Virus record (IMG/VR): IMGVR_UViG_3300029352_000013
Span: 1-16,485 of that record
DNA: 16,485 nt
Source of the DNA: a virus
Direction: 5' to 3' (one strand)
Numbering within the stretch: the first letter of the stretch is position 1; each line of letters begins with the position of its first letter. Shown here piece by piece: positions 5,153 through 11,349 of this stretch. The position numbers and the translations under genes were made by a program. Below the pieces are notes generated by a model. That model saw only the letters and a program-made list of their open reading frames with translations. It was not told the origin of the DNA and did no database searches.

Positions 5153-5215
5153 TTTCTGATTTCTGCAAACCCTTTAACCTCTCCTAATTTCTACAACTGT
5201 TTCTGATTTCTGCAA
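5153..5215 (+). repeat. two 16-nt direct repeats TTTCTGATTTCTGCAA 47 bp apart, plus a degenerate middle copy
   Basis: Identical 16-mers at 5153-5168 and 5200-5215. ATTTCTACAA at 5187-5196. Each 16-mer is itself TTTCTG-n-TTTCTG. Confidence 0.85.
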
Positions 5216-5225
5216 CAGTAAAAAG

Positions 5226-5242
5226 CCCCAACCGACAATTTT
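5226..5242 (+). promoter_or_regulatory. copy 2 of the CCCCAACCGACAATTTT motif, upstream of the 5311 gene
   Basis: 17/17 identical to 3547-3563. TCATACAAAC recurs at 5280-5289 after a 37-nt insertion relative to copy 1. Confidence 0.5.
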
Positions 5243-5310
5243 AAGAGCTGGGTGACAGAGAGTCACTTACCTACGATCTTCATACAAACTGGAAACGAGA
5301 GGAGAAAAGC

Positions 5311-5526
5311 ATGTTTTATATCAAAACCGAGCTTTCTGAAGGAGTCACCCTTCGGAGTGAGATCACCGACGAGAATGTGTTTACCATGTGCCCCGGCTGT
5401 GGCTGTGAGCATCAGGTTAACCTTGCGGACGTCGTGGATGCCGATGATGGCCTTGATCTCTACGGCACTGTCGTTCTCTGCGCTGAGTGCTCTGCCAAGC
5501 GACTGGCCGAGCGGGAGGAGGAGTAA
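5311..5526 (+). CDS. 71-aa zinc-ribbon-like hypothetical protein
   Basis: GAGAGGAG RBS. Two Cys pairs (CPGCGC and CAEC) about 35 aa apart. Confidence 0.7.
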   Translation: MFYIKTELSEGVTLRSEITDENVFTMCPGCGCEHQVNLADVVDADDGLDLYGTVVLCAECSAKRLAEREEE

Positions 5527-5528
5527 AT

Positions 5529-5744
5529 ATGCCTCTTCCGAGGATGAGAAGCGCCAGGAAGGCGGCTGCCGAAATCAAGATGCAAGACCCTGGGACCTGC
5601 ATCACGGAAAGTGCTATCCGCCGTGCTATGAAGCGTGGGGAGATCAGGTGGGTGCCCAACGAATCCAAGGCGCTAGTGGACTTGGACGAAGTGCTGGAGT
5701 ATTTTTCCCGCCGGGATGGTAGAAGCAATGAAGAAGGCTGTTAA
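5529..5744 (+). CDS. small excisionase/MerR-type HTH DNA-binding protein
   Basis: Internal ATG at 5529 of ORF-track 5487..5744, with GGAGGAGGAG upstream. ITESAIRRAMKRGEIRWVPNESKALVDLDEVLEYF resembles excisionase-family HTH_17 proteins. Confidence 0.6.
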   Translation: MPLPRMRSARKAAAEIKMQDPGTCITESAIRRAMKRGEIRWVPNESKALVDLDEVLEYFSRRDGRSNEEGC

Positions 5745-5991
5745 TTGCATGGCTTTCTTCCTCGCTCTCCTGGCGGCCCTGTGTGCCGAGAATATCCCGC
5801 TCGCTCTGGGGCTGACCGGAGCGGCAGGCCTGACACTGACAACCTCCCAAACTCCCAAGCGTTTGGGAATTTGGGCAAAAAAGAGAGCCGCTTCCAGTGC
5901 TGTGAACACTGAAAGCGGCAAAGTGGAAAACCCATGCAGTGAATTTATCCATCCCTATTTTAAGGGATCTGAAGGAGAAAAACAAGTATGA
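5728..5991 (+). CDS. small hypothetical protein with an N-terminal hydrophobic helix; start uncertain (5716, 5728 or 5749)
   Basis: Frame of ORF-track 5716..5991. Hydrophobic AFFLALLAALCAENIPLALGLTGAAGL. Its stop overlaps the next start (ATGA at 5988-5991), suggesting translational coupling. RBSs are weak. Confidence 0.45.
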   Translation: MKKAVNCMAFFLALLAALCAENIPLALGLTGAAGLTLTTSQTPKRLGIWAKKRAASSAVNTESGKVENPCSEFIHPYFKGSEGEKQV

Positions 5992-6191
5992 ATTGCAGTT
6001 TGGACCTTGATTTGTGTCCCTCTGTGGCCGAAGTAGAAATGGCGGTGCAAACGTTCAAGGCTAAAATCGTTCGGTTATCTCCCGGCTTCCAGTGTGGAGA
6101 CATGAGGGGGGAAACGCTTCTGCGTTGTGCTCTTGCCGCCGTTTGGCGGGCGGGCCGGGAGTTTCAGGCCAAGAAAGGGGTGAGGGTATGA
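5988..6191 (+). CDS. 67-aa hypothetical early protein
   Basis: GAAGGAGAAAAA RBS. ATGA overlaps at both ends. Confidence 0.55.
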   Translation: MNCSLDLDLCPSVAEVEMAVQTFKAKIVRLSPGFQCGDMRGETLLRCALAAVWRAGREFQAKKGVRV

Positions 6192-6502
6192 ATCTTCCTT
6201 TTAAGTTCCCCGTCTCGCTGGAGGAGTTCATGGCCTACCAAGCGAACCTTGTGGGGCGTAAACTGCCAAGGAGCACGAAAAATCTTGTCGGGAAGTGGCT
6301 CCCCACTATCAACAACGCTTATGAAGCTGGACTGAAATCTGACTTTGCTGATATTAAGCTGTCCATGGACTTCGTGGACGGGCTTATCGAAAGCAACCTC
6401 GGGAAGCAGGCGTATGTCGGCTTTATGGAGGGGATCCGCTGTTGGATTGCTATTGCTTGGGATCACGGTCAGCGTGACGCTGGAAAGAAGGCGGAAAAAT
6501 GA
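6188..6502 (+). CDS. 104-aa hypothetical early protein
   Basis: Internal ATG at 6188 of ORF-track 6092..6502 (MNLPFKFPVSLEEF...). GGGGTGAGGG lies upstream. ATGA coupling with the neighbours. Confidence 0.65.
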   Translation: MNLPFKFPVSLEEFMAYQANLVGRKLPRSTKNLVGKWLPTINNAYEAGLKSDFADIKLSMDFVDGLIESNLGKQAYVGFMEGIRCWIAIAWDHGQRDAGKKAEK

Positions 6503-6807
6503 AAAGCAAAAAAATTTATGATCTTCCGCCTAAAATCATTGACGCTATTACGGGAGCGCTTGGGGAAGAGATGGCAGATCCTTTGATTCAGCTTTTGCGT
6601 AGTTTCTACAACGACGGAGTGGCAGGAATCAACAAAGAGGATCATTTGAGGGATTTCGAGGTTGCGTCGGAGCAATGGTGTGAGTTTAAGGGAAAGCAGC
6701 ATATGACGCACGAAGAGGTTAAATTGTTGGGCCTTCTGCTCAAATGGGAACGTCTCTGCTGGGAACAGGGGCGGCTGGACGCAACGAAAGGAGCGATGAA
6801 ACTTTGA
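6499..6807 (+). CDS. 102-aa hypothetical early protein
   Basis: ORF-track entry. ATGA overlap with the upstream gene. GAAGGCGGA RBS. Confidence 0.7.
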   Translation: MKSKKIYDLPPKIIDAITGALGEEMADPLIQLLRSFYNDGVAGINKEDHLRDFEVASEQWCEFKGKQHMTHEEVKLLGLLLKWERLCWEQGRLDATKGAMKL

Positions 6808-7097
6808 ACAAGGAATTTTTGGAACGTCTGTATTGGGCGTGTGCGGACGAGAGCAACGTTAAGGCGGACGGCACGAAACTGGCGGAGTTCTATGAGAGGA
6901 TTGAAGAGGCCGAAAATGTTTCTGAATGTTTTTCTAAGAAAGTGTATGCCTTGAATCTGACGGTAGATGAAAAGGACCTCCTGGAAACCATCGGTGGTGA
7001 ATTTGCTCTCGTTTATGAAAAGCAGGGTTTCATCAACGGTTTCCGCCTGGGCATGAAGCTGGCCAGGGAGCTGGGGGAGGAGGTGGCGGGCGCATGA
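6804..7097 (+). CDS. 97-aa hypothetical early protein (probable TTG start)
   Basis: Frame of ORF-track 6744..7097. The TTG at 6804 overlaps the upstream stop (TTGA), with AAAGGAG 10 nt upstream. The ATG at 6744 would overlap the upstream gene by 64 nt. Confidence 0.55.
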   Translation: MNKEFLERLYWACADESNVKADGTKLAEFYERIEEAENVSECFSKKVYALNLTVDEKDLLETIGGEFALVYEKQGFINGFRLGMKLARELGEEVAGA

Positions 7098-7318
7098 ATA
7101 TTGACAAGCTCATGAAAGACATTCAGAAGGTTAAGCCTGGACGGCACGGCTGTAAGCTCGGAGAGCTTTCCGATATCTGCGGCGCCTCTGGTGGATATGG
7201 GTTGAAAGCTGCGGCCAACTGCTTCCTTTTCGGGTTTATCCAGGGCCGGAAAGCAGAGCGGGCGGAGGCTAGGCGGGAAAAAAGACAGGCGGAGTACCAG
7301 AGGCATGAGCAGGATTGA
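7094..7318 (+). CDS. 74-aa hypothetical early protein with a basic C-terminus
   Basis: GGAGGAGG RBS. ATGA overlap with the upstream gene. Confidence 0.6.
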   Translation: MNIDKLMKDIQKVKPGRHGCKLGELSDICGASGGYGLKAAANCFLFGFIQGRKAERAEARREKRQAEYQRHEQD

Positions 7319-7943
7319 TCCTACTGCCTTTCAGCGGGTCAAGGAAGCCGTGGATATCTCGGAGGTAGCCCGGCACTTTGGCCTTGAGCCTGACCGGCGG
7401 GGCTGGTGTTGCTGTCCGTTTCATGGGGAGAAAACCCCGTCGTTTCACCTGTACCAACAGCGGTATCACTGTTTTGGATGTGATGCCCACGGGGACGTTA
7501 TGGATCTTGTAGCGGCGCTTCTGGACGTTCCGTTGCTGGAGGCCGCCAAGGAGATCAATGAGGTGTTTCACCTTGGGATAGACCTTGGCGCCCCAGCGGA
7601 CCCGGTGGCGGTGGCTATGGCTGAGGCCGAGCGGGAGAGGAAGCGCCAGTTTCAGGCGTGGCGGAAAGACGCCCTCTTAGTGCTGACACGTCGTTTCCGG
7701 GCCCTGTGGCTTATGGTCAAGGTGGGTGGGGCACTGGCTGTTCCCGGCTCCATACCAGACACCTACGCCAACGCCCTGCGGGAAATCGAGACGATAGGAT
7801 ATTACCTGGACCTCCTCACCTTTGAGGAAGACGAAGCGCTGTGGGAGGCTATGCCAGCCATCAATGGGGCCGTGGGCAGAGCGAAGGAGGAAAAATGTGA
7901 CGTTAAAAAACCTGAGAAAGGCCACGGGCAAGCGGCTGGATAG
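7305..7943 (+). CDS. CHC2 zinc-finger protein (DnaG-primase N-terminal-like), with no recognisable catalytic domain
   Basis: Motif CCCPFHGEKTPSFHLYQQRYHCFGCDAHGDVMDL, which matches the zf-CHC2 pattern C-x-H ... C-x2-C. The remainder is helical with no TOPRIM motif visible. Confidence 0.85.
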   Translation: MSRIDPTAFQRVKEAVDISEVARHFGLEPDRRGWCCCPFHGEKTPSFHLYQQRYHCFGCDAHGDVMDLVAALLDVPLLEAAKEINEVFHLGIDLGAPADPVAVAMAEAERERKRQFQAWRKDALLVLTRRFRALWLMVKVGGALAVPGSIPDTYANALREIETIGYYLDLLTFEEDEALWEAMPAINGAVGRAKEEKCDVKKPEKGHGQAAG

Positions 7944-7961
7944 GGTCTGGAGGGTAAATAT

Positions 7962-8618
7962 GTGATTGGAGACAACTGGGGGTTTATCTCGCTCCATCGG
8001 TCTATCCTGAGCTGGGAATGGTATGACGATATCAACGTCTGCCGCCTTTTTATCCATCTGCTTTTGACCGTCGAATATCAAGATCACAAGATCCGAGGGA
8101 TGGTCATAAAAAGAGGACAAAGGCTGTGTAGCGTTAAAAAACTGGCGTTGGAAACCGGTCTTTCATACCAGCAGACGAGGACGGCGTTAGAGCGTTTGAA
8201 ATTAACGAACACCATAACGAGCACTTCGTTCCCTAAAGGCACTGTAATTACAGTGAAAAATTACGCCGAGTACCAAGCGGCAACGAACAAGACAACACCT
8301 AAACAACAACAAAATAACGAACCTTCCTTATTTAATAATAAAGAAATAATAGAGGGGACGTCTACGACGTCTCCTCCCGCTCGTAAAAAGTTTGTTCCTC
8401 CCACCCTGAAAGAGGTTTCCGCCTATTGCCTGGAGAAGCATTATCATGTGGACCCAGAGCTGTTCGTGGATCATTACGAGGCCAACGGCTGGAAGCAGGG
8501 GCGGGGAAAGCCTATTGTGGATTGGAAAGCGGCGGTAAGGACTTGGGAGAGGCGGGACCGGTCCTGTTCCCCGGAACGCACCAAGGAGGATGACGGCTAT
8601 GGGCCGACTCTGCTTTAA
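7962..8618 (+). CDS. phage replisome organiser / replication initiation protein
   Basis: GTG start with GGAGGG upstream. N-terminal winged-helix-like WGFISLHRSILSWEWYDD...KKLALETGLSYQQTRTALERLK. Low-complexity linker. The C-terminal PTLKEVSAYCLE...YEANGWKQGRGKPIVDWKAAVRTWERRD is typical of the conserved phage C-terminal domain of such proteins. Confidence 0.8.
   Translation: MIGDNWGFISLHRSILSWEWYDDINVCRLFIHLLLTVEYQDHKIRGMVIKRGQRLCSVKKLALETGLSYQQTRTALERLKLTNTITSTSFPKGTVITVKNYAEYQAATNKTTPKQQQNNEPSLFNNKEIIEGTSTTSPPARKKFVPPTLKEVSAYCLEKHYHVDPELFVDHYEANGWKQGRGKPIVDWKAAVRTWERRDRSCSPERTKEDDGYGPTLL
8203..8372. other. candidate replication origin inside the organiser gene (iteron-like repeats plus an AT-rich patch)
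   Basis: TAACGAAC at 8203 and 8315, TAACGAGC at 8215, CAACGAAC at 8281. AT-rich 8299-8352. Tandem GACGTCT-AC-GACGTCT at 8357-8372. Confidence 0.3.
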
Positions 8619-9918
8619 TGACGTCCTTCTCTGTGAGCCCCGGATGATCGACCCGAGCATGAGCACCGGCCTTTGGTGGTGTCAGTCTCCAGAGGATGTG
8701 CAGGCCGTCGGTGTCAACGCCGTCTGTCTCTCAGTGACAGGGCGGTGGGAGGACGTGAAGAACTGCGGGGATTGGCTCTCCCAGTTTCCCTTCGTGTTCG
8801 TGGCCTCCCCGGACCGGGAGCTGGTGGAGCAGGTGCGGCGCCATGTCCGGGGCCTGCCGGTGCTCTCCCCACGGGAGGGGGCTTTTGGGGGCTATCCCTC
8901 CATTACGGCTTTCCTGGAAGCCCATCTGCCAAGCGAGATCAATGGCATCTTGTACGGGGCGGTGATGGAGCCCTCTTACGGGCTTCTGGAGCTGGCCCGG
9001 GTCTCGGTCCTGGATGAGCGGGAGGTCCCCCGCACGCTCTCCGGCCTGCCGGTGCTGGACAAGCTCACCGGCGGTTTCCGTTCCGGGGAATTGTCTGTCT
9101 GGACGGGCAAGCGGGGGGAGGGAAAGTCCACCCTCCTGAGCCAGATCCTTCTGGAGGCCATCGACCAAGGGCACAAGGTCTGCGCCTACTCCGGGGAACT
9201 GCCCGCCGGGCAGTTCAAGGCCTGGGCCCTGGTCCAAGCGGTGGGGCCAGGACACCTGGATCTGTTCCAGGACCCGGAGGTGGGGGAGCAGATAAGCTGT
9301 GCCCAGCCCATGGCCGCCCGGCGGGTGGACGAGTGGTGGGCCGGGCGGTATTACCTCAACGATATTCGGGACGGCTCTGCCCACGATGAGGACCGAATCC
9401 TGGATGAGTTTACTTATGCAAATCGTGTTCTTGGCTGTGACGTGTTCCTGGTGGACAACATCATGACCACCCGCCTTTCAGGGGACCGGGATTTCTACCG
9501 GGCTCAGTCCATGTTCACCCAGCGGTTGACCCGATTTGCCAAAGCCCAAGGGGTCCACGTCCACTTGGTGGCACATCCCCGGAAGACCCAGCAGGGCAAG
9601 CCGGTGACGGACGGGGACGATATTTCCGGCTCCGGTGATATCGCAAACCTTGCGGATAACGTGTTTTCTGTGCGGCGGCTCTCCGACGAGGAGGCCGAGA
9701 ACGAGGGCTGTTCCTCGCTGGTCTACGTGATGAAGGTCCGCAACCGGGGGAAGCGGGGCAAGGTCGGGTTAGAGTTCGATTCGGATTCGTGCCGGTTTTA
9801 CCCACCGGGGAAGGGGCCGTCTAAGGCCTACGGCTGGGAGCGGATGGGTGAGCAAACGACTTTAGTGGACCTGGGAGACGCCCCGGTCCCATTTGAGGAG
9901 AGTGGCGGCAATGTATAG
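8599..9918 (+). CDS. DnaB-like / RecA-fold replicative helicase
   Basis: ATG at 8599 with AAGGAGG 9 nt upstream (ORF-track start 8590 overlaps the RBS). Walker A GKRGEGKST. Walker B VFLVDNIMT. HLVAHPRK and SGSGDIANLADNVF are typical of the DnaB C-terminal domain. Confidence 0.88.
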   Translation: MGRLCFNDVLLCEPRMIDPSMSTGLWWCQSPEDVQAVGVNAVCLSVTGRWEDVKNCGDWLSQFPFVFVASPDRELVEQVRRHVRGLPVLSPREGAFGGYPSITAFLEAHLPSEINGILYGAVMEPSYGLLELARVSVLDEREVPRTLSGLPVLDKLTGGFRSGELSVWTGKRGEGKSTLLSQILLEAIDQGHKVCAYSGELPAGQFKAWALVQAVGPGHLDLFQDPEVGEQISCAQPMAARRVDEWWAGRYYLNDIRDGSAHDEDRILDEFTYANRVLGCDVFLVDNIMTTRLSGDRDFYRAQSMFTQRLTRFAKAQGVHVHLVAHPRKTQQGKPVTDGDDISGSGDIANLADNVFSVRRLSDEEAENEGCSSLVYVMKVRNRGKRGKVGLEFDSDSCRFYPPGKGPSKAYGWERMGEQTTLVDLGDAPVPFEESGGNV

Positions 9919-10075
9919 GGGCGACATGGACTATGAATGCCGGGAGTGCGTTTGTAGGCTTTGCGGGCTTTTCATGACCAAGGATTGTCTGGAGGATGCC
10001 GATATGTGTAATCGTTGCGATAACGAAAGGCACACAGTATCGTGCCCCTGGCACACGGAGGAGGATTGCAGATGA
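9911..10075 (+). CDS. 54-aa Cys-rich (9 Cys) mini-protein
   Basis: Internal ATG at 9911 of ORF-track 9893..10075, overlapping the helicase stop. Translates MYRGDMDYECRECVCRLCGLFMTKDCLEDADMCNRCDNERHTVSCPWHTEEDCR. Confidence 0.55.
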   Translation: MYRGDMDYECRECVCRLCGLFMTKDCLEDADMCNRCDNERHTVSCPWHTEEDCR

Positions 10076-10236
10076 ATGAAATGGAGATGCGAGAGCTGGT
10101 GCTTCGCTTGTTCCAGAAGGAAAGGCGCATTTGGGAGCTCATGGCCTCGGAAGGCAATGAGACGGCCAAAGGGCACTTGGAGAAAGTCGTGGAGGCAGAG
10201 GCGCTTTTTCGGGAGGGGTTTCATGGTGACGAATAG
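10072..10236 (+). CDS. 54-aa helical hypothetical protein
   Basis: ATG at 10072 with GGAGGAGGA upstream. ATGA overlap with the upstream gene. Confidence 0.55.
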   Translation: MNEMEMRELVLRLFQKERRIWELMASEGNETAKGHLEKVVEAEALFREGFHGDE

Positions 10237-10447
10237 ACCGGCTTCCACGGCTCAACTATGCTGGAGCTGTCAGAACGCTGTACCGACTGAGGATGGGCGT
10301 CGTGGATGTGAATGGTCTCTTGATTTCAGACCCGTTCCTGGCTGGACGGCAGAGAGGGTAGGCAAGTCGGTGATAGGCAAGACCTGGAGTGTCAAGGCTT
10401 GTCCGAAGTACATACCTGATCGGCCGAGGAAGGAGTGGCCATACTGA
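10223..10447 (+). CDS. 74-aa Cys-containing hypothetical protein (CxxC...C...C)
   Basis: Internal ATG at 10223 of ORF-track 10076..10447, with GGGAGGGG upstream. Translates MVTNRPASTAQLCWSCQNAVPTEDGRRGCEWSLDF... Confidence 0.6.
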   Translation: MVTNRPASTAQLCWSCQNAVPTEDGRRGCEWSLDFRPVPGWTAERVGKSVIGKTWSVKACPKYIPDRPRKEWPY

Positions 10448-10887
10448 TGGACTGGAAGCGAGAAGCGATTGACATGTTAAAAAACTACCCGGCCCAGCGG
10501 ATGAGCCTTGCTACGCTGCCTGGGGAGTTGGAGAGGTTGGAGTTAGAAAGATCAGCCTTGCGAAGCTCCTTGGGGGAGGGTGAACATGTCACTGGCGGCG
10601 GCGGTGAAGTTGGGGACAAACTCCTATCCAACATTGTTAAACGGGACGAGATCAAAAAGAACTTGGAGCTTGCCCAGCGGCGGGTGAGGATGGTGGAAAA
10701 AGGGCTCTCTGTGCTGGACGAAGAGGAGCGCAGGATCTTGGAATTAATGTTCATCCACCGTGGAAAGGGGAACGTGGAACGTTTATGCGAAGAGCTGAAC
10801 ATCGAGAACCCTCCAGGTGTCTACAAGCGCAAGGATAGGGCGTTGCGCAAATTTACGCTTGCCATGTATGGGGTAACTGAGAGCTAG
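10447..10887 (+). CDS. sigma-70 region-4-like HTH protein, probable late-gene transcriptional activator (RinA/ArpU-like role)
   Basis: The ATG at 10447 overlaps the upstream stop (TGATG). The C-terminal LDEEERRILELMFI..GNVERLCEELNIE..VYKRKDRALRKFTLAMYG resembles a sigma region 4 HTH. Positioned just before the packaging genes. Confidence 0.7.
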   Translation: MDWKREAIDMLKNYPAQRMSLATLPGELERLELERSALRSSLGEGEHVTGGGGEVGDKLLSNIVKRDEIKKNLELAQRRVRMVEKGLSVLDEEERRILELMFIHRGKGNVERLCEELNIENPPGVYKRKDRALRKFTLAMYGVTES

Positions 10888-10930
10888 GAGAATTTCAGGA
10901 GACGATTTTCCAGAAAAACCGTGATATGCT

Positions 10931-11297
10931 CTAACCATGGAAGTGGGCCAAGGTAAGGCCCCTTCCGGCCTTTCTGTCGCCCGGCACCGTGGCGGCATGA
11001 GTAACGGGCGCCTCCTTTCCTACCAGCCCGGCGGGGTGCCAGCCTCGTCGGGCCCCATGCCCAGGCTGTCCGCATGAGGACGGCAGGGGCCGTTTCCGTT
11101 TCCTTCACCCGAAAGGGGGAGGGCCACGGCAAGCAGGAAAAGCCGTTGAGCCTGCAACGTACCCCGAAGAGGGGTATATGTCACTCTTGGCCGCACGAGG
11201 CTGATGGTGGCTCCAATGATCTGAGAGGTGACGCAAGGCGGGGTATTCTCCCGCTGCCTCTCAGATCCAACGAAAGCCCCTGCGATAGTGTGGAACT
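10931..11297. ncRNA. candidate structured RNA or long structured leader of unknown class (strand unresolved)
   Basis: About 370-400 nt with no credible ORF, GC-rich. Nested hairpins at 10955-10972, 10978-11010, 11040-11068, 11089-11130 (GAAA tetraloop), 11160-11176 and 11218-11267 (11-bp perfect stem with a nested 5-6 bp stem). Confidence 0.3.
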
Positions 11298-11304
11298 AAA
11301 AAAG

Positions 11305-11336
11305 ACCGCCGGGGGATATATAAATCCTCCGGCGGT
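11305..11336 (-). terminator. rho-independent terminator of the reverse-oriented zinc-ribbon gene
   Basis: 12-bp stem ACCGCCGGGGGA / TCCTCCGGCGGT with an 8-nt loop. On the minus strand it is followed by CTTTTTTAG. Confidence 0.7.
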
Positions 11337-11349
11337 AGTGTTTATGAGA

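Follow-up and report, generated by a model that had tools for sequence, protein, structure and literature searches.

Apart from the Ltr activators, little is known about how temperate phages infecting Clostridia-type gut bacteria time and maintain transcription of their late operons of 20 kb. In Gram-positive phages with such activators, an ltr-type gene lies before terS, and the intergenic region holds direct repeats and a terminator (PMC3753634). A comparable region is found in IMG/VR virus record IMGVR_UViG_3300029352_000013, of which positions 1 to 16,485 were analysed; this whole stretch of 16,485 nucleotides (nt) is called the window here. Between the late regulator gene of the window and its packaging genes lies a non-coding, GC-rich region that we consider likely to be a transcribed, selected and structured late-operon leader carrying a conserved motif. 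The motif itself, the core at 11126-11211, is a candidate undescribed RNA motif of about 90 nt, and none like it was found described in the literature searched. What is new here is a compact, covariation-supported pseudoknot-hairpin motif within a lineage-specific leader, common to several gut phage lineages. With a conserved pseudoknot leader ahead of the packaging genes, late control would gain an RNA layer, and at this small size the motif is testable by compensatory mutation.

By position and type, directly before the packaging genes, the regulator encoded at 10447-10887 corresponds to an Ltr late activator. As at the promoters served by RinA, ArpU, LtrA, LtrB and LtrC, the ltr-type gene is followed by direct repeats just distal to it (10887-10902, in a layout that recurs across loci) and by a terminator before terS (11305-11336) (PMC3753634). 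For Ltr systems, the literature searched yielded no description of a long structured leader, of a pseudoknot motif or of tRNA-like cassettes. The locus also resembles the PR'-6S RNA-tR' interval of phage lambda with its Q protein, in that a regulator gene lies directly upstream, binding repeats abut a -35-less promoter, and a short transcribed interval and a terminator precede the late genes, a layout present in 72 of 95 relatives and expanded in the window. Unlike in lambda, the window regulator is Ltr/DUF1492-like, and Ltr, rather than being a Q protein, is described as an activator (PMC3753634); a conserved RNA motif lies in the interval, which measures about 400 nt. The put RNA of phage HK022 is about 70 nt long and folds into two stem-loops that form a V, stem I containing a triplex; its effect reaches beyond 10 kb without a need for continued tethering (PMC9378689). 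Like put, the core is part of a promoter-proximal structured RNA heading a long phage operon with terminators to cross, and untethered, put-like action at a distance would explain why the motif tolerates insertions. However, put belongs to the early operons of a lambdoid coliphage and the motif to the late operon of Clostridia-type gut phages, and the core shares the promoter-proximal position before terminators but not the V of two stem-loops with its triplex.

The core consists of an H-type pseudoknot, AAC, hairpin F, a UAU spacer and hairpin G capped by GCAYGA, located as follows:

11126 to 11155, plus strand: candidate H-type pseudoknot, conserved in five lineages with compensatory changes
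11160 to 11179, plus strand: hairpin F (UACCCC-GAAGA-GGGGUA, 11160-11176) and UAU spacer; stem kept, with a C-G/G-C flip
11180 to 11215, plus strand: hairpin G, a 13-position stem (11180-11211) with the cap GCACGA (11193-11198), then UCCA (11212-11215)

It was recognised in five phage lineages and about 30 contigs, in all of them upstream of the packaging genes and on the same strand. In stem 1 of the pseudoknot, ACGGC (11126-11130) pairs with GCCGU (11142-11146); in stem 2, interleaved with stem 1, GCAGG (11133-11137) pairs with CCUGC (11151-11155). Loop lengths of 2, 3-4 and 3-4 nt permit an H-type pseudoknot. Covariation was assessed on 12 distinct sequences from the five lineages, with partners slid by 1-3 columns and 500 shuffles as controls. 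Core cells were paired in 98.5% of cases, against 23-38% with slid partners, and four core pairs had changed on both sides, a number matched by only 6 of the 500 shuffles. These two-sided changes are C-G to U-A and A-U to G-C in stem 2, C-G to U-A in stem 1, and G-C to C-G in hairpin F. Stem 2, for instance, reads GUGGG/CCCAC in Dulem virus 33 and in contig L368 (relatives are cited by locus label where they have to be told apart), and the stem 1 exchange occurs in Dulem virus 33. The sole unpaired cells belong to the terminal pair of stem 1, all other changes being compensatory or wobble-compatible. In a separate alignment of 16 sequences, three stem positions of hairpin G also showed compensatory changes across lineages, and inspection of Dulem virus 33 and L368 revealed that the GCAUGA cap sits there on stems of different sequence.

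The loop of hairpin F varies by lineage among GUAA, GGAA, UUCG, UUAC, GGUGA and GAAGA; loops that are of GNRA or UNCG type in most lineages are typical of an RNA. The window loop GAAGA is that of the nutL boxB, but a lambda nut site, with boxA and a boxB whose GNRA-like pentaloop is recognised by N, was rejected since the other loops in homologues mean that no specific loop is kept; no search was made for an N-like gene. The GCAYGA hexaloop caps two hairpins of the window type, at 11072-11077 and 11193-11198, the first with U and the second with C in the window, and the reverse in L288 and L289; its invariance in all five lineages suggests a recognition site. Kissing between the two loops was discarded on inspection, as the U/C differences do not keep pairing, and so was a mini-open reading frame (ORF) starting from the AUG after hairpin F, of which neither length nor sequence is conserved. 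Within the window lineage, the core is 94-97% conserved. Stems 1 and 2 could be alternative rather than simultaneous, and in the window ACGGC is able to pair with 11089-11093 or with 11142-11146.

Relatives were found via contigs encoding the closest regulator homologues; exact-protein look-ups had at first recovered nothing but 100% identical contigs, from which no covariation can be read. The leader in L288, L289 and L290/L291 matches window positions 10885-11181 at 86-87%, and L168 and L285 have the promoter and islands of the leader in common with the window. Sequence searches with the leader were otherwise sparse in results: blastn of the window leader against GenBank phages gave no match, nhmmer against 160 regulator-homologue loci returned identical copies only, and a covariance model (R1) detected no further members among the same 160 loci. 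A 15-mer promoter scan of IMG/VR yielded mostly chance matches, and the loci L172-L284 were discarded as junk; a pattern scan of metagenomes gave two real loci, and an IMG/VR scan for a variant with a 4-nt loop 3 gave no match. More productive was a pattern derived from the leader's 3' portion, which picked up about 25 human-gut viral contigs of IMG/VR carrying the core. In this IMG/VR type, the core lies downstream of an XRE-type helix-turn-helix gene and a sigma-70-type promoter, and upstream of terS or an HNH gene, in phages whose large terminase subunit is Terminase_6N/3 and whose portal is SPP1-type; the core is nearly invariant, with flanks swapped among at least 3 upstream and 2 downstream modules. 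By blastn, the only GenBank phage matching the IMG/VR-type leader was Dulem virus 33 (PP511792.1), which together with IMG/VR contig L368 represents minimal, divergent versions. In these, the core sits between a promoter and the terS ribosome-binding site and ends 6-10 nt before the Shine-Dalgarno sequence (SD); L368 has TTGACA-17-TGATACAAT, then a small hairpin and the core, followed after 10 nt by a ribosome-binding site and the gene for a Terminase_2 small subunit (E = 2.6e-34).

The motif thus recurs with unrelated promoters, regulators and terminases. The promoter before it is an Ltr-dependent extended -10 or a consensus sigma-70 promoter, the gene upstream is DUF1492-like or XRE-type, and the first gene after it is terS of three kinds, an HNH gene or unknown. 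The distance from core to first gene ranges from 6 nt to more than 900 nt, and the core is always promoter-proximal. The packaging modules differ as well: Terminase_4, TerL_ATPase and HNH in the window, Terminase_3 with an SPP1 portal in L288, Terminase_6N/3 in L285 and Terminase_2 in L368, the relatives L288, L289, L168 and L285 also including the HNH plus TerL_ATPase type. The HNH, TerS and TerL of the window were absent from all 160 regulator-homologue loci. These differences indicate that the leader travels with the regulator and promoter and not with a terminase type. A cos or pac site was excluded by the same variety, as leader or core precedes four different terminase types.

The core is reached from a promoter directly 3' of the regulator gene, where the following elements are located:

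10447 to 10887, plus strand: late regulator gene, 146 amino acids (aa), Ltr/DUF1492-like, from homologues and position
10887 to 10909, plus strand: direct repeat GGAGA-N6-GGAGA (repeat 10887-10902), then CGATTTT; candidate binding site of the late regulator, from the layout in homologous loci
10922 to 10930, plus strand: extended -10 promoter element TGATATGCT, with counterparts in 95 of 125 loci

The repeat, CGATTTT and TGATATGCT follow the regulator stop in this order, and the start of transcription is predicted at about 10937. Of 125 distinct loci that encode a homologous regulator, 95 have a TGnTAnnnT element no more than 110 nt past the stop codon of that gene, so the extended -10, -35-less promoter candidate pointed out in an earlier note on this DNA is strongly backed by comparison. 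In most of the 125 loci the layout consists of a 5-nt direct repeat, CGATTTTT, about 10 nt and TGnTAnnnT. The repeat varies with the regulator lineage (CCGGA, TGAGA, GCGGA or GGAGA) while its spacing and the following CGATTTTT are kept, which looks like a co-evolving DNA-binding specificity. Among close relatives, the repeat region is identical in L168, L285, L288 and L289, and the -10 element is conserved in the alignment. In 72 of the 95 loci with an extended -10 element, a G+C-rich hairpin of 10-12 base pairs (bp) with a T-rich tail starts at +7 to +25 of the predicted start; these loci belong to L008-L167, and the hairpin lies about 45-110 nt past the regulator stop. In L293, the terS ribosome-binding site is directly 3' of the promoter-proximal hairpin. 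Since terminator-like hairpins are so frequent near the promoter, late transcripts of the regulator family must generally read through, and Ltr/DUF1492-type 'activators' may themselves be Q-like antiterminators or cooperate with such factors.

The regulator has 48 homologues, one of them with PF07374 (DUF1492), found in assemblies of Oscillospiraceae, Lawsonibacter, Dysosmobacter and Faecousia; in Pfam, the window protein itself matches Sigma70_r4 weakly (E = 0.066). Distant members of the regulator family (L035, L066, L071, L077, L138-L165) carry ordinary tRNA genes (Thr, Ser, Asn, Met, Ile) in the slot between promoter and packaging genes, which makes this slot a recurrent home for RNA genes.

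The earlier note had described 10888-11304 as a GC-rich segment of about 400 nt without a real ORF, and proposed a large structured RNA. Its composition and non-coding status are borne out. G+C is 0.59-0.65 across 10801-11250, compared with 0.50-0.55 upstream and 0.41 downstream. The ORFs 10884-11132 (minus), 11020-11196 (minus) and 11074-11508 (plus) have no Pfam match, and three single-base indels relative to the 86-92% identical relatives L288 and L289 break every reading frame. The ORF 11074-11508 moreover runs antisense through a genuine 47-aa gene and a terminator. In L285, L288 and L289, the gaps of 700-1250 nt are free of called genes, and homologues contain no intact ORF, so both a protein-coding gene and the decayed pseudogene that the note had raised as an alternative were ruled out. 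The proposal of a structured late-operon leader also stands in that the region is non-coding, structured, at the early/late junction and downstream of a -35-less activator-type promoter, and it precedes, as noted there, a terminator and a head-on moron promoter in the path of late transcription (promoter and terminator scan). A single ornate RNA of about 400 nt, however, is not supported: the 5' 190 nt are lineage-specific and fast-evolving, and the hairpin at 11218-11267 is absent from the closest relatives. Nor is the region of the ROOL or GOLLD type, as Rfam 15, including the ROOL, GOLLD, HEARO and OLE models, gave no match and only the core of about 90 nt is conserved. The note could not assign the RNA to a class by eye, and Rfam offers none either. 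At the gathering threshold, the only Rfam match in the whole window was the tRNA at 227-300; for 10800-11560 at E<=10, matches were at chance level (best E = 0.72), and on the relatives L285, L288, L289, L168 and L334 only tRNAs were matched. Other known ribozymes and the HDV-like (theta) ribozymes, related to that of hepatitis delta virus (HDV), were likewise rejected, without a model match and with a strand order that does not fit the HDV topology.

Upstream of the core, the leader contains the following elements:

10939 to 10966, plus strand: hairpin A (GGAAG-U-GGGCC ... GGCCC-CUUCC), near the transcription start, in the minimum-free-energy fold
10978 to 11010, plus strand: hairpin B (CGCCCG...CGGGCG), outer stem invariant, inner pairing not conserved
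11011 to 11024, plus strand: C/U-rich tract CCUCCUUUCCUACC, read from the sequence
11026 to 11053, plus strand: hairpin C, a 12-bp stem with a GCCA loop, kept in four homologues
11059 to 11090, plus strand: hairpin D, GCCC / GCUGUCC, loop GCAUGA (11072-11077), GGACGGC / GGGC
11089 to 11130, plus strand: hairpin E, with inner CCUUCACCC-GAAA-GGGGGAGGG (11102-11123), 97% identical in L288 and L289

This 5' half (10937-11125) occurs only in three sister prophages, and hairpins A-E (10939-11125) are a lineage-specific extension of the leader. Identity to L288 is 96.8% for the regulator gene and 92% for the promoter, falls to 73% for 10937-11010 and 83% for 11011-11090, and is 97% for 11091-11125 and 94% for 11126-11179; the first 190 nt or so of the leader therefore evolve faster than the adjacent gene (73-83% vs 96.8%). 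Despite 17-27% divergence, hairpins A, C and D form in each homologue with compensatory or wobble changes. Hairpin A is kept in L288, L289 and L291 at 27% divergence, including a G-C to A-U exchange; hairpin C shows several one-sided G-C/G-U changes and one G-U to A-C; and hairpin D has a compensatory G-C to A-U in L288 and L289 in addition to one-sided changes. The architecture of hairpin D with its GCAUGA loop is also found in L168, and covariance model R1 matches it weakly, as a second hairpin-G-like copy. No covariation was seen for hairpin E in the alignment of close relatives. Tracts similar to CCUCCUUUCCUACC exist in IMG/VR-type leaders and in L285, and CCUCCUUUC within the window tract is identical to the 3' end of 16S rRNA and anti-SD-like. 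The leaders are in general rich in CCUCC-type tracts and GGAGG-type partners (window 11011-11024 and 11102-11110; L328 3968-3992), so many of their helices are SD/anti-SD-like in sequence.

All helices listed in the earlier note exist at the positions it gave; their conservation is mixed. Hairpin F (11160-11176) is kept with covariation and the outer stem 10978-11010 is kept but invariant, whereas 10955-10972 is displaced by the conserved alternative hairpin 10939-10966, and 11040-11068 is broken in L288 and L289, where the helices 11026-11053 and 11059-11090 are kept instead. The helix 11089-11130 can form, but the ACGGC of its outer stem (GCCGU/ACGGC) is also used by the conserved stem 1 of the pseudoknot, so that the two compete. 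The stem at 11218-11267 is present too and has a similar GAGAGG/CCUCUC hairpin in another lineage, but is missing from the closest relatives L288 and L289. In homologous intergenic regions, where the note had suggested a test for covariation, it was seen in both pseudoknot stems and in hairpins F and G. Folding energies were less informative. The plus strand of 10888-11340 folds at -217.5 kcal/mol (z = -6.80, equalled by 0 of 100 shuffles) and the minus strand has z = -4.28, compared with -2.5, -2.8 and -0.2 for three coding controls of equal length in the window. The ordinary values of homologous leaders indicate that the extreme z is partly specific to the window and due to the perfect 11-bp stem 11218-11267, and z-scores were dropped as too weak to be family-wide evidence.

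The 3' end of the leader and its surroundings comprise:

11218 to 11267, plus strand: hairpin H, perfect 11-bp stem GAUCUGAGAGG/CCUCUCAGAUC with an inner GCGGG/CCCGC, from the fold
11305 to 11336: terminator, 13-bp hairpin, end of the leader unit
11350 to 11552, minus strand: head-on moron, with a 47-aa double-CxxC zinc-ribbon gene (11350-11493), called as a gene in L002 and L003
11577 to 11873: HNH gene, downstream of the leader region

IMG/VR-type leaders have a GGAGAGG...CCUCUCC hairpin before terS, with one-sided stem changes. In the direction of the minus-strand moron, the hairpin 11305-11336 is followed by a strong T-run; its T-rich tail on the plus strand is weaker. A homologous hairpin follows hairpin G in L288 and L289, and terminator-like hairpins lie between core and late genes in the window, L289, L285 and L168. 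No plus-strand promoter other than that at 10922-10930 was detected in the window. The moron lies between the leader and HNH/terS. Its protein matches DUF4428 (Pfam, E = 8e-5), and its promoter TTTACA-17-TATAAT (11552-11524) is near-consensus with a TG extension; the moron shares the hairpin 11305-11336 as terminator. In L288, a different small minus-strand gene occupies this position.

In L288, L289, L285 and L168, the leader ends in ...GGGG(C)UAUAU and continues directly into tRNA genes or tRNA-like structures. In L288 and L289, such cassettes separate hairpins F and G by 369-391 nt, so that GUCACUCUUGGCCGCAUGAGGCUGAUGGUGGCACCA, which directly follows the leader at 11180-11215 in the window, lies that much further on; the window hence represents the cassette-less version. 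Across relatives, the cassettes measure 232-608 nt, are inserted between hairpins F and G and always start right after ..AUAU, the same junction at which hairpin G begins. Rfam models gave no tRNA, tmRNA or cloverleaf in window positions 10800-11560; such elements were found only in relatives, at the hairpin F/G junction. The tRNA-like elements are located as follows, with further ones in L305, L329, L335 and L364:

L168, 3737 to 3810
L285, 1358 to 1431
L288, 3734 to 3806 and about 3919 to 3997
L334, 5543 to 5613

These keep the acceptor, D and T arms and have abnormal anticodon loops of 6 or 8 nt without U33; ARAGORN labels them 'tRNA-???' and gives anticodons of 2 or 4 bases. They probably do not decode but serve as tRNA mimics or as processing signals, and the fusion of the motif to such cassettes points to unexplored phage tRNA mimics. 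On their 3' side follows a conserved trailer consisting of a hairpin, (U)GAC and a second hairpin with a GAAAGA loop (L168 3811-3860; L289 3812-3855; L285 1432-1490), which has no Rfam match and no obvious fit to the HDV-like (theta) fold. Hairpin G is followed by UCCA in the window, ACCA in L288 and L289 and CCUA in the IMG/VR type; in the window type, hairpin G with NCCA resembles the acceptor minihelix of a tRNA, including discriminator base and CCA. The closest described parallels are the theta ribozymes and MALAT1-mascRNA: as there, the motif is fused in sister phages to tRNA-like structures with predicted cuts by RNases P and Z, and theta ribozymes share the late-gene context in gut phages (PMC10879173). 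In contrast, theta ribozymes have an HDV fold and are located 3' of genuine suppressor tRNAs, while the motif is on the 5' side of tRNA-like elements whose anticodon loops are defective, and the window holds no tRNA-like element.

As to function, the Ltr/DUF1492-like regulator would act on the repeats 10887-10902 and fire the late promoter at the -10 element 10922-10930, and window positions 10887-11340 would be the start of the prophage's late transcription unit. The product would be an untranslated, modular, highly paired leader ending at the terminator 11305-11336. Folding on the nascent late transcript, the core would act in cis and co-transcriptionally, keeping polymerase or transcript competent to enter the late operon of about 20 kb; in the window, HNH, terS and terL would be reached by crossing the terminator and the promoter of the head-on moron. 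Such read-through would be put-like in logic, not in family. This logic is favoured by the constant position of the core amid otherwise variable surroundings, and the tolerance of 232-608-nt insertions and of varied gene distances fits action on polymerase or nascent RNA better than sequestration of a ribosome-binding site. For the whole reading, a late leader whose conserved motif acts by read-through in cis, we estimate a probability of about 0.35.

Several observations weigh against this reading. The 72 of 95 relatives in the same regulator family that have a terminator-like hairpin at +7 to +25 have no such leader, which implies that read-through in the family does not generally need this RNA; it is perhaps achieved there by the regulator acting like lambda Q, and the RNA may be unnecessary for read-through in the window too. 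The minimal versions in L368 and Dulem virus 33 have no terminator within the leader. The motif, an H-type pseudoknot plus two hairpins of about 90 nt, has no sequence similarity to put. At the level of structure, the compensatory changes stem from only about four independent events, and covarying inverted repeats could also be expected of a palindromic protein-binding site in DNA. Homologous leaders have z-scores of only -0.6 to -2.4, like the coding controls, and the IMG/VR-type leader folds better on the minus strand. In hairpin G of the IMG/VR type, C-A mismatches would be G-U pairs on the opposite strand, which leaves the wobble evidence for strand mixed; the G-U pairs of the window-type plus strand would be mismatches on the other strand.

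The core might instead be an element of the 5' untranslated region, riboswitch-like or protein-binding, that gates translation of terS or HNH or blocks 5'-3' decay; in the window, insertion of the moron would have separated it from its target, and it would be kept for stability or as a relic. Small conserved H-type pseudoknots are typical of riboswitch aptamers, and here both pseudoknot stems covary, as expected of an aptamer fold. In the minimal versions, the core lies close to a ribosome-binding site in the same compact way as the preQ1, SAM-II, fluoride and guanidine-III riboswitches; it ends 6-10 nt before the terS SD, and the arms of hairpin G, CCCUCCC/GGGAGGG, are anti-SD-like and SD-like. 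The IMG/VR-type GGAGAGG/CCUCUCC hairpin is 25 nt before the SD GAGAGGUGG, and near-consensus sigma-70 promoters ahead of the L368 and L334 leaders would lead one to expect a post-initiation gate on the late genes. Unlike those riboswitches, however, the motif matches no known riboswitch model in Rfam, has no evident ligand or expression platform and precedes packaging rather than metabolic genes. Predicted folds leave the SD largely unpaired in L368 and show no clear sequestration in Dulem virus 33 and L328, so that SD sequestration in the ground state is not predicted. The insertions tolerated between hairpins F and G also fit poorly, and in the window, L288 and L289 a long distance and a terminator separate the core from the first late gene, yet the core is 94-96% conserved. 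Such a switch is doubtful in our view. We find it just as hard to favour a stand-alone or processed RNA, in which the interval between promoter and terminator would be an RNA-gene slot like lambda PR'-6S-tR', producing a discrete RNA of about 400 nt in the window and, in sister phages, leader RNA and tRNA-like pieces freed by RNases P and Z; the products would act in trans, for example as decoy or scaffold, and not on the late operon. The distance of about 400 nt between the promoter 10922-10930 and the strong terminator 11305-11336 fits this well, as does the presence of tRNA genes and tRNA-like structures in the same slot of relatives. Cassettes and hairpin G start at one junction, and the UCCA or ACCA after window-type hairpin G resembles a minihelix substrate of RNase P. 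Extended -10 promoters can work without an activator, so the leader RNA could be made even in lysogens. But minimal and IMG/VR-type versions have no terminator after the motif and run straight into terS, and the NCCA is not general, the IMG/VR type having CCUA.

Two further explanations are less likely. Acting as DNA, the repeats might be duplex binding sites for a protein (operator or roadblock) or linkers promoting module exchange, which would account for pseudoknot stems that are also inverted repeats, since a palindromic operator would covary equally, for an IMG/VR-type core that is near-invariant amid swapped flanks, as a boundary or linker would be, and for an IMG/VR-type minus strand that folds equally well or better. 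Interleaved repeats, rather than nested or tandem ones, are nevertheless unusual for operators; the stem of hairpin F is kept while its loop varies among GNRA/UNCG-type tetraloops; window-type G-U pairs exist on the plus strand and would be mismatches on the other; and the orientation to promoter and packaging genes is constant, with cos and pac excluded by the variety of terminases. A role at the DNA level accordingly seems improbable. An absence of function seems just as improbable; the region would then be GC-rich filler left by gene decay, or by a recombination hot spot where tRNA cassettes and morons come and go, and its hairpins a by-product of composition. The 5' half at 73-83% beside a gene at 96.8%, the absence of hairpin H from the closest relatives, homologue z-scores no better than those of coding DNA and the lack of such a leader in most regulator-family relatives would all agree with filler. 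However, the core is 94-97% conserved in its lineage and recognisable in four others with unrelated flanks, its pseudoknot and hairpin F stems change only in compensatory or wobble-compatible ways except at the terminal pair of stem 1, and no homologue has an intact ORF. Compared with these two, read-through in cis remains the preferred reading. A bolder and tentative version, which we think rather unlikely, would see the core as a new class of cis-acting RNA that gates packaging genes, as a factor-independent processive antiterminator for Gram-positive RNA polymerase or a riboswitch-like sensor, and also serves as a docking platform for tRNA-like cassettes with abnormal anticodon loops; these could, for example, be decoys against tRNA-targeting defences, released by RNases P and Z.

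The rest of the window is that of a prophage of an Oscillospiraceae-type gut bacterium. After the HNH gene come the other packaging genes, a Terminase_4 small subunit, a TerL_ATPase large terminase and a portal. Other features are:

227 to 300: tRNA, adjoining the integrase
390 to 1628, minus strand: integrase
8590 to 9918: DnaB-like helicase

A 3-kb metagenome contig, L292 (OKRT01008386.1), is identical to the window from the 3' end of the regulator gene across the promoter and 58 nt into the leader. Beyond a junction at window position 10995, it continues as a bacterial histidine-biosynthesis operon (IGPD, GATase, His_biosynth), and it is either an assembly chimera or the boundary of a prophage remnant.

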